Source: Chloroflexota bacterium
GTDB taxonomy: Bacteria; Chloroflexota; Dehalococcoidia; GIF9; UBA5629
DNA length: 49,120 nucleotides
Direction of reading: 5' to 3'
Assembly (NCBI GenBank): GCA_016865895.1
Contig: VGNY01000003.1
Span: 1 to 49,120, forward strand
Shown here: positions 1,217 through 4,677 of the stretch, piece by piece
Layout of the letters: each line of letters opens with the position of its first letter
Numbering within the stretch: the first letter of the stretch is position 1
The notes under the pieces: generated by a model
Told to the model about the DNA's origin: nothing
Databases searched by the model: none
What the model saw: the letters and a program-made list of their open reading frames with translations, nothing else
Position numbers and translations under genes: made by a program

Positions 1217-3883
1217 ATGCTTAAGTGGCTCGGTAGCCTTGTTGATTCCAACGAAAAAGAACTGAAACGTCTTGAGCCTATTGTAGACGAGATAAACTCG
1301 CTTGAGCCTAATTTCCAGAAACTCAGCGACGCTGAACTCCGCGCTAAGACCGATGAGTTCAAAGCCCGTCTAAAAAATGGCGAGACGCTGGATGATATAC
1401 TGCCTGAAGCCTTCGCCGCCGTCAGAGAAGCCGCCAGACGTACTATAGGTGAACGCCACTTCGATGTCCAGCTTATGGGTGGCATCGTCCTCCACCAGGG
1501 AAAAATCGCCGAGATGAAAACCGGCGAAGGTAAAACCCTGGTTGCCACCCTACCTCTATATCTAAATACCCTCAGCGGCGACGGTTGCCACCTCGTCACC
1601 GTCAACGATTACCTGGCACGGCGAGATGCCTACTGGATGGGACCCATATACCATGCCCTCGGCCTTACGGTCGCCAGCATCTATCCCCCACAGAGCCCCG
1701 CCGAGCACCTGCCAGCTCGCCTTTATGACCCCGACTACACCGATGAAAAGGACACACGCTGGCCCCACTTTCGACCCATCACCCGCCGCCAGGCCTACGA
1801 AGCCGATATAACCTACGGCACCAACAACGAATTCGGCTTCGATTACCTCAGAGACAACATGGCCATAGACCTGTCTCAATATGTCCAGCGTCCGCTTAAC
1901 TACGCCATCGTAGACGAGGTGGATAACATACTTATTGATGAAGCCCGTACGCCGCTAATAATCAGCGGTGCTGCCGAAGAAGCCACTGAAAAATACAACA
2001 TCTTTGCTCGACTGGTCCCCCAGCTCAAACAAGACGAAGACTACACCATTGAAGAAAAGGAACGCCAGACCTACCTAACCGAATCAGGCATGACCAAGCT
2101 GGAAAGATGGCTGCGCCGCGATGGCTTGCTCAAAGCCCCAAGTCTCTATGACCCGGCCAACTACGGTCTCAATCAGTACATGGAAAATGCCTTGAAAGCC
2201 CATGCTCTGTTCAAAAGAGACCGTGACTACGTAGTCAAGGACGGGCAGGTTATCATTGTTGATGAGTTCACCGGCCGGTTGATGTTCGGTCGGAGATACT
2301 CAGAAGGGCTACATCAGGCCATTGAAGCCAAAGAAAGGGTCAAAATTCAGCGTGAAAGCATAACTCTAGCCACCATCACCTTCCAGAATTACTTCCGACT
2401 CTACAAGAAACTGGCTGGCATGACCGGCACCGCCGCCACCGAAGCCGAGGAGTTCCACAAGATTTACAAGCTTGAAGTTGTCGTTATACCCACAAACAAA
2501 CCGATGATTCGCATTGACAACCCCGACCAGATTTACAAGGACGAAGAGACCAAATTCAAAGCTGTCGCCAGGGAGATTGAAAACCTCCACCAGCAGGGCA
2601 CGCCGGTGCTCATCGGCACCGTCTCCATCGAGAAATCCGAGCTTTTAAGCGATATCCTAAAAAGGAGAGGCATACCTCACGAGGTGCTCAACGCTAAAAA
2701 CCATGAGAAGGAAGCCGGCATTATCGCCCAGGCTGGCCGCGTAGGCGCTGTCACCGTGGCTACCAACATGGCCGGGCGTGGTGTCGACATTATACTTGGA
2801 GGTAAAAAGCCTGAAAAACCAAAACGCGAGGATTTCCAGGACGAAGAAGAATGGCAGAAGGAACTCAAAAAATGGCAAAGGGAAGAACGGGAATGGCAGG
2901 AGGAGCATGACAGGATAATTCAGCTCGGCGGTCTTCACGTCGTCGGCACTGAGCGCCACGAAGCCAGACGCATTGATAACCAACTCCGCGGCCGCTCTGG
3001 AAGGCAAGGCGACCCCGGCAGCTCCCGTTTCTACGTCTCGCTGGAAGACGATGTTGTCCGTCGCTTTGGCGGCGACCGCATCAAAGGCTTCATGGACTGG
3101 GCTGGCTTCGATGAAAACACGCCTATCGAGCATTCCATGGTCAGCAAAAGCATAGAAAACGCTCAGGTGAAGGTCGAAGGCTACCACTTCGATATCCGCA
3201 AACACCTGGTTGAATATGACGACGTGGTCAATAAGCACCGCGAGGTAATCTATGCCGAGCGCAGGAAAATCCTTGAGGGCGCTGACCTCAAGGCGAACAT
3301 ACTGTCTATGGTTCGGGGGGAAATCGAAAAAACGGTAGCCGCTCACTGCGGCAGCGAGTTAATGGAGCCAGATTCTGCCGGCTTAATCGAAGACCTTGCC
3401 ACCATTTTCCCACCAACACCTGAACTCAACCCCAACACCCTATCTCAGATGAAGCCAAAACAAATCACTGATAAGTTGATTGACTATGCCGGGCAATTGT
3501 ATGAGCAGCGAGAAAAAGAGATAGGCACTGAAAACATGCGGCTGCTGGAAAGACTGGTGATGCTCCGAGCCATTGACAGCTTATGGAAAGACCACCTCAC
3601 TGCCATGGACCACCTTCGTCAGCAGGCTGGCCTTTTTGCCATGCGGCAGATTGAGCCCATAGTCGTCTACAAAAAAGAAGGCCACGCATTCTTCGAGAGC
3701 CTCATCGCCGGCATCAATTATGAGGTCGTCCACACCATTTACAAGGTCAACATCACCGTCAAAGAAGCCCCCGCTCGGAGGCAACCCCAGAGAGCCGCCG
3801 TCCCCGCCGGCAGAAAAGTCGGCCGCAACGAACCCTGCCCCTGCGGCTCAGGCAAAAAATACAAACACTGCTGCGGCAGATAA
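1217..3883 (+). CDS. secA: Preprotein translocase ATPase SecA
   Basis: Motifs [34 protein letters not shown] and [14 protein letters not shown]-terminal SEC-C motif [19 protein letters not shown]. Confidence 0.99.
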
Positions 3884-3935
3884 ATACCAATATCAAAACT
3901 GTATTGATATTTCTCCAATATTATGATATACTATT
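3827..3935 (+). repeat. Direct repeat copy 1: secA 3' end (58 bp exact, 3827-3884) plus downstream promoter segment
   Basis: AACGAACCCTGCCCCTGCGGCTCAGGCAAAAAATACAAACACTGCTGCGGCAGATAAA is identical at 4568-4625. ATTGATATTTCTCC and TGA(T/C)ATACTA are also shared downstream. Confidence 0.95.
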
Positions 3936-3968
3936 TTTATTATAAAATATATATTAAGAGGGCTTAAA

Positions 3969-4172
3969 ATGAAAACACTAATTGATATACAAGATGACTT
4001 GATGAATGAGCTACTAAAGGAAACGGAGGTCAAAACGAAGAAGGAAGCTGTTATCACTGCCATAAAAACCTATCTCAGCTTAAAAAAGAGGCAGAGGCTG
4101 GCATCGCTCATCGGCAATTATGAATTCGGATACACGGCGCAGGATTTAGAAAGAATGAGGACTGATGGATAA
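3969..4172 (+). CDS. vapB: VapB-family antitoxin
   Basis: 67 aa with an RHH-like N-terminus (MKTLIDIQDDLM...KTKKEAV); overlaps the downstream PIN gene. Confidence 0.85.
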   Translation: MKTLIDIQDDLMNELLKETEVKTKKEAVITAIKTYLSLKKRQRLASLIGNYEFGYTAQDLERMRTDG

Positions 4173-4566
4173 AGTAATAGTTGACACCTCAGCCTGGATA
4201 GAATCTTTTCGTCCCTCAGGTGAAGCCAAGCTAAAAGAAATTCTCAAAGAGTTAATATCCGATGGGGAAATATTCCTACCCGGCATCATAAAAACAGAAT
4301 TACTACGAGGAACAAAGTCAAAGAAAGAATTCCAGATGCTCAATGAGCTCTTAGACAGCCTGACTTACCTCTCTGTAGAAGACGATTTCTGGGGTCGATT
4401 AGCCAAATTCTCCTTTAACCTCCTTCGAGAAGGCATCACCGCCCCTCTAACAGACACCTACATTGCCCTTCTAGCGATCGAAAAAAATGCGCCGCTCCTC
4501 CATCGTGACACCCATTTTGATTTGATAGCCCAGAAAACCGGGCTTAAAATATTGGAAGTTAAATAA
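4165..4566 (+). CDS. vapC: VapC PIN-domain ribonuclease toxin
   Basis: PIN acidic motifs [19 protein letters not shown] and HRDTHF. Confidence 0.92.
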
Positions 4567-4567
4567 A

Positions 4568-4677
4568 AACGAACCCTGCCCCTGCGGCTCAGGCAAAAAA
4601 TACAAACACTGCTGCGGCAGATAAAACCTACAGTCTTCAACTTGATTGATATTTCTCCCTACTTCTGACATACTAAT
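4568..4677 (+). repeat. Direct repeat copy 2: orphan secA SEC-C tail plus promoter segment
   Basis: Exact 58-bp match to 3827-3884, starting 1 nt after the vapC stop. It has no start codon of its own. Confidence 0.95.

Follow-up and report, generated by a model that had tools for sequence, protein, structure and literature searches.

Copies of the secA gene end lie between toxin-antitoxin and defence modules in a variable secA-polX island of Dehalococcoidia

The DNA analysed here, referred to as the window, is a stretch of 49,120 nt of contig VGNY01000003.1 in assembly GCA_016865895.1, which was obtained from a Chloroflexota bacterium of the class Dehalococcoidia. It carries a complete secA gene whose 3′ end, with the SEC-C zinc motif, is found twice. 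The last 57 nt of secA and one further base form a direct repeat of 58 nt (3827-3884 and 4568-4625) with 100% identity and a spacing of 741 nt, and a vapBC pair lies between the two copies. With up to three mismatches allowed, the secA tail was located at two places in the window, where none was expected (100 shuffles). The same two places were the only ones in the whole 2.6-Mb assembly. Copy 2 begins 1 nt after the vapC stop codon, and there is no start codon in its frame. The repeat unit contains only vapB and vapC. As in type II VapBC systems, the small vapB gene overlaps the PIN-domain toxin gene by 8 nt, and toxin-antitoxin (TA) activity is predicted. Each tail copy is followed by a 46-nt block (R1 and R0), within which ATTGATATTTCTCC begins 19 and 21 nt past the two copies. 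The blocks are 76% identical at an offset of 742 nt, and each has a predicted sigma-70-like site with an upstream TG. An R1-type block also stands between a tail copy and vapBC in loci L053/L089 and L086. The exact repeat around vapBC, the related promoter-like blocks and the unit of about 741 bp with vapB and vapC alone had all been pointed out in a first-pass annotation, and each of these observations was confirmed. That annotation also proposed a search of the genome for other orphan SEC-C copies, which revealed none besides these two. A third SEC-C match found with nhmmer (contig C163, ~1140-1200, reverse strand) was rejected, being an internal motif of a 682-aa protein and not a tail copy. 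The coordinates of all features are listed in Table 1.

Table 1. Features of the window from secA to polX
Feature	Position	Strand	Description and evidence
secA	1217..3883	+	Complete, SEC-C zinc motif at end; Pfam SecA_DEAD, P-loop_SecA, SecA_SW, SecA_PP_bind, SEC-C (aa 870-888)
Tail copy 1	3827..3884	+	Working secA end (last 18 codons, stop, 1 nt); repeat search
Block R1	3897..3942	+	Promoter-like, part of the vapBC module; TTGATA-17-TATACT at 3904-3932
vapB	3969..4172	+	Antitoxin; PF09957, E 2e-7
vapC	4165..4566	+	PIN toxin, 8-nt overlap with vapB; PF01850, E 3e-11
Tail copy 2	4568..4625	+	Non-coding, identical to copy 1; read as displaced secA end and recombination seam
Block R0	4639..4684	+	Promoter-like; TTGATA-17-CATACT at 4646-4674
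73-aa gene	4767..4988	+	Antitoxin-like; weak DUF2683 match
HicB-like gene	5044..5268	+	Antitoxin, no HicA; PF15919
EVE-domain gene	5384..6379	+	Recurrent island gene; PF01878
75-aa gene	6388..6615	+	Cys-rich small protein, no family
N6/N4 DNA methyltransferase gene	6623..7261	+	Short N-terminus, no restriction partner; PF01555, MTase_II
Remnant of ~70-aa gene	7219..7302	+	3′ remnant of a conserved gene; sequence read, loose end at 7219, full genes in relatives
relB-parE	7326..7767	+	Last module ahead of polX; PF18506, PF05016
polX	7764..9497	+	Family-X DNA polymerase with PHP domain; conserved right island border

An exact repeat of this kind could be produced by misassembly. In that case, vapBC and one tail would exist as a separate circle or tandem form, secA would lie directly before R0, and the loop would have been threaded into the chromosome. 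Six lake-water metagenomes contained the locus, with 0.89-0.97 of the sampled words, in agreement with an uncultured organism living in lake water. The read evidence consisted of Logan contigs (k = 31), which end inside the 58-nt repeat, and none of them bridges vapC to R0. The graph is ambiguous at this point, which speaks for the artefact. However, three of the lake runs contain a unitig, of 743 nt or split, that starts within copy 1, crosses vapBC and reaches copy 2. It has the letters of the window, and its depth is about that of the flanks (X1, 9.9 versus 12.7 and 9.0; X3, 41.7/29.9 versus 38.2 and 30.1; X6, 32 versus 20.4 and 24.8). A 741-bp circle would have no replication gene. In addition, an independent metagenome contig, L086, has secA, tail, vapBC and tail in line. 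Its two copies differ at 4 positions among 56 aligned nt, and therefore they are not a collapsed repeat. The same order was found in several other assemblies with diverged copies. We regard the artefact as highly improbable.

We fetched the secA end and its downstream DNA from relatives. All of the genomes compared are metagenome-assembled genomes (MAGs), and they are kin and hence not independent. Both the tail and polX, downstream of secA, were present in 36 loci. The distance between the two genes varied widely: it was at most 66 nt in eight loci, 139-209 nt in six and 1.1-5.5 kb in 22. The first group, in which secA and polX are adjacent, represents empty sites. In genome G007, the real secA end is followed by a block that is 87% identical over 131 nt to copy 2 plus R0 of the window, and vapBC is absent. 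Pfam was run on 134 open reading frames (ORFs) from 31 secA-polX intervals. The TA pairs identified in these islands were VapBC, HTH_17-PIN, antitoxin-ParE and MNT-HEPN, with HicAB in G151. Restriction or modification genes were represented by BsaWI-like endonucleases with N6/N4 methylases, HNH with a methylase, and GmrSD. The islands also contained EVE, RelA/SpoT-like, DJ-1 and zinc ribbon genes and a few housekeeping genes.

A tail profile built from 30 working tails was used to search 57 loci (455,648 nt). Among the 45 loci that included the secA end and at least 1 kb downstream, 12 had extra tail copies, 15 in total. All of them were on the strand of secA and downstream of it; at E<0.01, no minus-strand match was found in the 455,648 nt. 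The proportion of 12/45 overstates the frequency, as the third batch of loci was picked for having at least two BLAST matches. In the unselected first sample, extra copies were found in 5 of 33 relatives, plus the window. Across the order, 19 of the 149 genomes with a tail match had at least two matches, some of which are other SEC-C proteins. The tally for the class covered one unpublished genome (G415), which none of our conclusions depends on.

The copies stand between different modules. In G151, secA is followed by HTH_17-PIN, a copy, HicB-HicA, a copy, antitoxin-ParE, a copy, an EVE gene, a 77-aa gene and polX. The order in G025 is secA, a 153-aa gene, a copy, vapBC, a 14-nt remnant, antitoxin-ParE, a degenerate copy and restriction-modification (RM) genes. 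Simpler arrangements were secA, HTH-PIN and a copy in G072, and secA, vapBC and a copy in both G051 and G068. In G006, a DJ-1 gene on the other strand lies between secA and the copy, which is followed by genes for a Zn-finger protein, a restriction endonuclease and a methyltransferase. A zinc ribbon gene precedes a degenerate copy in G028 and G035. In G218, which belongs to another order of the class, secA is followed by a 131-aa gene, a copy, a GmrSD-like gene and polX. G151 and G025 (three extra copies each), among others, have tandem arrays in which the older repeats decay away from secA. The variable cassettes bounded by SEC-C tails that the earlier annotation had proposed to look for are thus present in relatives, for example in G151, G025 and G218, and so are empty sites. 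Several MAG contigs break exactly in the tail: contig C3 of G049 ends there, and contigs C8 of G010, C74 of G023 and C112 of G113 start there. Hidden tail repeats would be expected to have this effect in short-read assembly.

Some SEC-C matches proved not to be tail copies. A match in G012 (L035, 2781-2846) lies inside an 805-aa protein. In this protein, as in the 682-aa protein of contig C163, the internal motif precedes a long C-terminal region, and neither is related to secA tails. On viral contigs (L072-L085), a degenerate SEC-C DNA pattern was found at 14 loci, of which one is a real secA and 13 are SEC-C sequences of other proteins. The open frames of these 13 are 38-264 aa long, with the motif C-terminal in 10 and near the start in two; in L076 it is C-terminal, without a secA match by tblastn. 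One of the viral proteins resembles a peptide-deformylase-like protein. No attP-like tail beside an integrase was found among the 14 viral-contig loci. Separately, locus L026 of G027 (2024-2248) contains a fusion of a truncated ~70-aa gene with 28 nt of tail sequence, and the full gene stands before polX. This joint is a right-end to left-end junction of two island alleles, and it fits either an illegitimate tandem join or a later deletion.

The copies have a bounded left edge. In local alignments of each copy with its own secA end, the similarity never extends beyond -64 nt from the end. The older joints after vapC suggest a left limit at about -73/-75, from ...KVGRN on. A left edge fixed at -58 was considered and dropped, because the older vapC joints reach ~-73/-75; the joint in the window looks like an older one minus about 15 nt. 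Past the stop codon, the similarity is variable: it reaches +13 in G006 and about +30 in G218, and includes the R blocks in the window.

The differences between copies and resident tails are mostly silent. Eleven copies without indels showed 43 synonymous and 29 non-synonymous codon differences, and 57 of the 95 changed bases were at third codon positions. The synonymous fraction was 0.60, compared with 0.18 ± 0.04 under random mutation, and was reached in none of 5000 simulations. Copy 1 of G151 differs from the resident tail by seven synonymous and no non-synonymous changes. Even for a decaying local copy beside a working tail that acquired nothing but silent changes, the fraction was estimated to be about 0.3. 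This mostly synonymous divergence implied that the copies spent most of it as working secA ends. Judged by these patterns, the copies are displaced secA ends of earlier states or of other lineages, still followed by their former downstream DNA.

Two explanations by duplication in place were weighed against these data. The secA end might have been duplicated locally in tandem, followed by decay and by occasional gene conversion that re-equalised the copies of the window. Five of the 15 copies are identical to, or best matched by, the tail of their own genome, and in G025 a 38-nt exact tract lies beside a diverged 5′ part, as in a conversion tract. However, the other 10 copies fit tails of other genomes better, the observed synonymous fraction is well above the estimate of about 0.3 (with 7:0 in G151 copy 1), the R blocks are merely 76% alike beside a 100% identical tail, and L086 has a different module after the same junction. 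We therefore consider local duplication very unlikely. The earlier annotation had preferred exchange between related genomes to simple local duplication, and the synonymous bias, the foreign best-fit tails and the sister contig L086 back that preference. Alternatively, insertion could have generated a very long target-site duplication, through staggered cuts at the tail ends and fill-in, in the way that CRISPR repeats are duplicated. The exact identity of the copies around the first module of the window would agree with this, and so would the growth of the arrays at the secA side and their decay away from it. However, the differences between copies are mainly silent, foreign tails often fit, the similarity past the stop codon is of variable length, and the islands showed no gene of the Cas1 or casposase type. 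There is hardly any probability left for this explanation.

We then asked how old the vapBC module is at this locus. A scan for VapC relatives in one genome per species gave 24 loci. In all seven Dehalococcoidia vapC loci, a tail precedes vapBC and a tail copy follows it. Three of the seven (L094, L095 and L097) were new, and several of the others were already in our set of relatives. Among the other 17 loci (Desulfobacteria and other groups, 33-67% amino acid identity), none had a tail, secA or polX within 3.5 kb. The amino acid identities of VapC and SecA to those of the window were 74 and 74%, 71 and 69.6%, and 67 and 68.7%, respectively. Downstream of vapC, the same joint can be recognised in every Dehalococcoidia vapC locus. 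As the identity of VapC tracks that of SecA and all seven loci are flanked by tails, vapBC is old at this locus and was not freshly inserted. The recent insertion of a vapBC circle is thus unlikely.

The sister contig L086 gave a closer view of the repeat. It is 99.35% identical to window positions 1869-4623 (18 mismatches in 2755 nt). It has the order secA, tail, R1, vapBC and tail copy 2, with the same vapC-tail junction as the window. In its copy 2 there are 4 differences and a TAA to TAG change at the stop codon; four of these are silent and one changes Cys to Arg. After copy 2, L086 continues into unrelated DNA with a Zn-finger gene and a BsaWI-like endonuclease gene. Two strains less than 1% apart therefore differ by a swap, the left edge of which is at or inside the tail copy. 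A second case is the pair G036 and G051, whose identity is 70-73% in secA (3′ ends) and 88% in polX. Over 941 nt of the island methyltransferase region (L029, 1698-2638; L062, 2607-3547), it rises to 97.9%. This mosaic indicates a recent transfer of island DNA. The breakpoints of exchange lie in conserved flanks, with the window and L086 diverging in the tail copy and G036/G051 forming a mosaic. Another candidate, contig C4 of G149, has a vapBC 89.6% identical to that of the window, and it was rejected as a case of transfer between families: the real secA of that genome is on a different contig, its tail is another one, and no polX is nearby. This 3.9-kb contig may be mis-binned. In our reading, the exact repeat of the window is a scar left when modules were recently swapped at the tail copy, and not a trace of fresh vapBC insertion.

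On balance, we lean towards the view that the secA-polX islands are modular and that the tail copies are seams at which modules are added or swapped by host homologous recombination. As vapBC between its tails is old, the exact identity over 58 nt is best explained by recent homologous exchange. The DNA identity of the tail is about 79-97% across the order, in most cases 80-97%, compared with ~65% between families in the preceding 600 nt of secA. No other stretch is sufficiently conserved between diverged relatives, which makes the tail a natural arm for exchange. The entry of TA islets through homologous recombination in their flanks is an accepted concept (PMC13617665). Alternative cassettes lie between the same two conserved genes, and no mobility genes accompany them, as exchange through flanking homology would predict.

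Under this view, an island would be the secA body followed by n units of tail plus module. Every module, for instance a TA pair, an RM pair or an EVE gene, would have at its head a copy of the final 58 to ~75 nt of secA. In the window, the first module would comprise tail copy 1, R1 and vapBC. The second would comprise tail copy 2, R0, the 73-aa gene and the genes after it, and would represent a second secA end with its native downstream region. A conspecific donor carrying a secA end, R0 and the 73-aa gene with what follows could pair on the left with the older tail that follows vapC and on the right with DNA common to both strains. Replacement of the older tail by the donor strand, as far as the homology reaches, would then leave 58 identical bases and a sharp left border. 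A tail-flanked module might enter an empty recipient by a double crossover, with secA as the left arm and the tail as the right arm. Modules would thus spread and be swapped passively through host homologous recombination, without a recombinase of their own, and the first joint of each would require a rare illegitimate or enzyme-made event. We infer RecA-type recombination as the agent of exchange, as well as the direction of the swap and the origin of each first joint.

Several points weigh against homologous exchange. Homologous recombination replaces DNA, and the first far-side tail of a module is left unexplained by it. None of at least 15 copies, from several module types, reaches beyond ~64-75 nt upstream of the secA stop codon, and such a bounded edge looks like a defined site more than like random illegitimate joints. 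The differences between the window and L086 start 6 nt into the copy; thus, the crossover would have to fall in the first 5 nt, or mismatch repair would have to co-convert the sequence. The linkage of vapC, tail and R0 in the strain of the window comes from the assembly only.

The bounded edge and the sharing of one vapC-tail junction by two different right-hand modules in sister strains are the best argument for a trans-acting recombinase. In that case, attB would be the beginning of the SEC-C sequence, and tail-bearing (attP) cassettes would be moved by a tyrosine or serine recombinase, perhaps as circles; they would be cis-mobilizable elements stacked by accretion. The classic signature of such integration was indeed observed: direct repeats of a gene's 3′ end, an intact gene, tandem arrays decaying from the gene, and empty sites. 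Across several types of module, the left limit stays within about -58 to -75 nt. The genome of the window has 16 PF00589 and 4 PF00239 matches, all on other contigs, which could act in trans, and ssrA islands of this kind are described for the same class in the available portion of a published report (PMC3146451). However, integrase, resolvase and transposase domains were found by Pfam in none of the 134 ORFs of 31 islands, compared with the 16 Dehalococcoides ssrA islands described there as carrying a recombinase. No recombinase domain was found on the contig of the window. The candidate recombinase that the first-pass annotation had proposed to look for thus did not appear among the island ORFs. 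Furthermore, none of the 17 VapC loci outside the class has a tail, so the cassette carries no att site along; vapBC is old at the locus; and the tail does not fold like an attC site (z -0.5 to -1.4). Site-specific integration is the main rival explanation, and in our opinion a rather unlikely one.

A bolder variant treats the SEC-C coding end of secA as a dedicated landing pad of an integron-like, integrase-less cassette platform. Some host activity would open secA ~60-75 nt before the stop codon and insert a module that brings a replacement tail. Each insertion would swap the end of an essential gene and push the old end, with its module, downstream. We find this variant doubtful. If true, it would define a new class of cassette arrays, dedicated to TA and defence genes and found in two or more orders of Dehalococcoidia.

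Taken as a whole, the secA-polX stretch of the window is an eroded island with TA and defence genes. Its G+C content is 0.35-0.47 from 3885 to ~7770, compared with ~0.52-0.55 in secA and polX. Two orphan antitoxin-like genes, both without a toxin, occupy 4767-5268. In G002, G025, G151 and G049, the partner of the 73-aa gene is an 84-aa ParE/RelE toxin, which is missing in the window; the HicB-like gene has its HicA partner in G151. Homologues of the EVE gene occur in five other islands. The methyltransferase is ~95 N-terminal residues shorter than those of relatives (274-307 aa), which adjoin a BsaWI-like endonuclease that is absent in the window. A search of the island proteins with PADLOC returned only the type II methyltransferase and a weak PDC-S02 match for the EVE protein. 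An Rfam scan of 3500-8000 found no family.

Some further observations concern these genes. The remnant at 7219-7302 ends ...FFNHGNPDWEWIKERIEHYNKVSEA*, and the ~70-aa gene has the motif DDYYEWLKDNFKSFF. This gene stands directly before polX in many relatives, and it belongs to no Pfam family. Contigs in runs X3, X6 and X7 join 7261 to 7771/7773 and omit relB-parE (509-511 nt), at a match threshold of 90% and with sides of 30-43 nt. Their source may be related organisms that have the ~70-aa gene directly next to polX. In G002, a congener, vapB is fused to downstream sequence (L004, 896-1246), and vapC, tail copy 2 and R0 are deleted. This locus is an eroded version of the vapBC module of the window.

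These results have several consequences. Small, streamlined genomes without obvious mobile elements can still gather and shuffle TA and anti-phage genes, and the reusable seam is the best-conserved 60 nt of an essential gene. Orphan SEC-C tail copies behind secA are a sequence marker for variable defence cargo in Dehalococcoidia MAGs, and the tail repeats account for the contig breaks that fall exactly at the end of secA in several MAGs. A seam made by an enzyme would point to a recombination activity not yet described. A seam driven by homology would be a clear example from nature of modules that can stack, and not merely replace each other, thanks to a short conserved patch of coding sequence. 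For bacteria that have so far had no genetic tools, the secA tail is in either case a candidate site for safe insertion.

We found no paper that describes the end of secA as a site of this kind; one candidate integrative and conjugative element (ICE) targets guaA. Among known systems, the tycheposon islands of Prochlorococcus, in the part of the source available, grow as integration recurs at one site, with older elements displaced inward and partial copies of the tRNA gene left behind (bioRxiv 10.1101/2020.12.28.424599). The secA islands are similar in the repeated use of one site and in the partial copies of the target gene scattered through the island. Tycheposons differ in that, according to the same text, their targets are tRNA genes, hundreds of them have tyrosine recombinases, and circles and excision were shown by PCR (bioRxiv 10.1101/2020.12.28.424599).

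The nearest known case, the ssrA islands of Dehalococcoides, comes from the same class as the window. As described in the available portion of McMurdie et al. (2011), 16 of them carry a serine-recombinase module (DsiB/DsiA), and those without integration genes were proposed to be cis-mobilizable (PMC3146451). Like the secA islands, they lie in tandem behind a single-copy essential gene, with a direct repeat of its 3′ end at their borders; unlike them, they are large, target an RNA gene and have a 20-bp repeat (PMC3146451, same portion). The secA islands have the end of a protein-coding gene as their target, with repeats of 58-75 nt and modules of 0.5-1.3 kb, and none of the 31 examined yielded a recombinase.

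Tandem accretion also occurs among ICEs, integrative mobilizable elements (IMEs) and cis-mobilizable elements (CIMEs), for example ICESt1/ICESt3 at the 3′ end of fda, where integrase-less DNA flanked by att-like repeats is stacked by the target gene. The secA modules resemble CIMEs in that they lack an integrase, lie between copies of a gene's 3′ end and are stacked next to that gene. For CIMEs, however, an ICE integrase is known in the same array or species, whereas none was identified in the secA islands. The secA locus shares with integrative islands a border repeat (58 nt), an intact target gene, empty sites and decaying tandem arrays. It lacks an integrase or recombinase in the element, the array or related arrays (0/134 ORFs, 31 islands). 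In SCCmec and pseudo-SCC elements, CcrAB or CcrC makes repeats of 15-18 bp at the 3′ end of rlmH/orfX. As in the secA islands, their landing site lies in the last codons of a conserved protein gene, and their composites, separated by short repeats, include units without ccr. The secA repeats are three to four times longer and resemble whole displaced gene ends.

Integron cassettes and the dif modules of Acinetobacter form arrays of one or two genes, often TA pairs, which are moved by a recombinase encoded elsewhere. The secA islands also have small cassettes, often TA pairs, with short recombination sites between them. Folding of both strands of both window copies gave no significant attC-like hairpin (z -0.5 to -1.4). 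There is no intI/attI at the head of the array, where secA stands, and no tyrosine recombinase in the islands. All tail copies are direct, whereas dif modules alternate in orientation; judged by eye only, no Xer-type 11-6-11 site (28-bp, dif-like) or palindrome is evident in the tails.

The minimal mobile elements of Neisseria are small alternative cassettes between conserved genes, spread by host recombination. A related case is the TA-only islets of Photorhabdus. In the part of the source available, their entry by homologous recombination at flanking core genes is discussed, and a term search of the main text gave no match for 'direct repeat' (PMC13617665). The secA islands resemble both in having alternative cassettes, empty alleles and no mobility genes. 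They differ from both in the repeated ends of a flanking gene between the cassettes. Tail copies that let modules stack are thus a new element compared with minimal mobile elements and TA islets, and the secA case is tandem accretion at a gene end in variant form.

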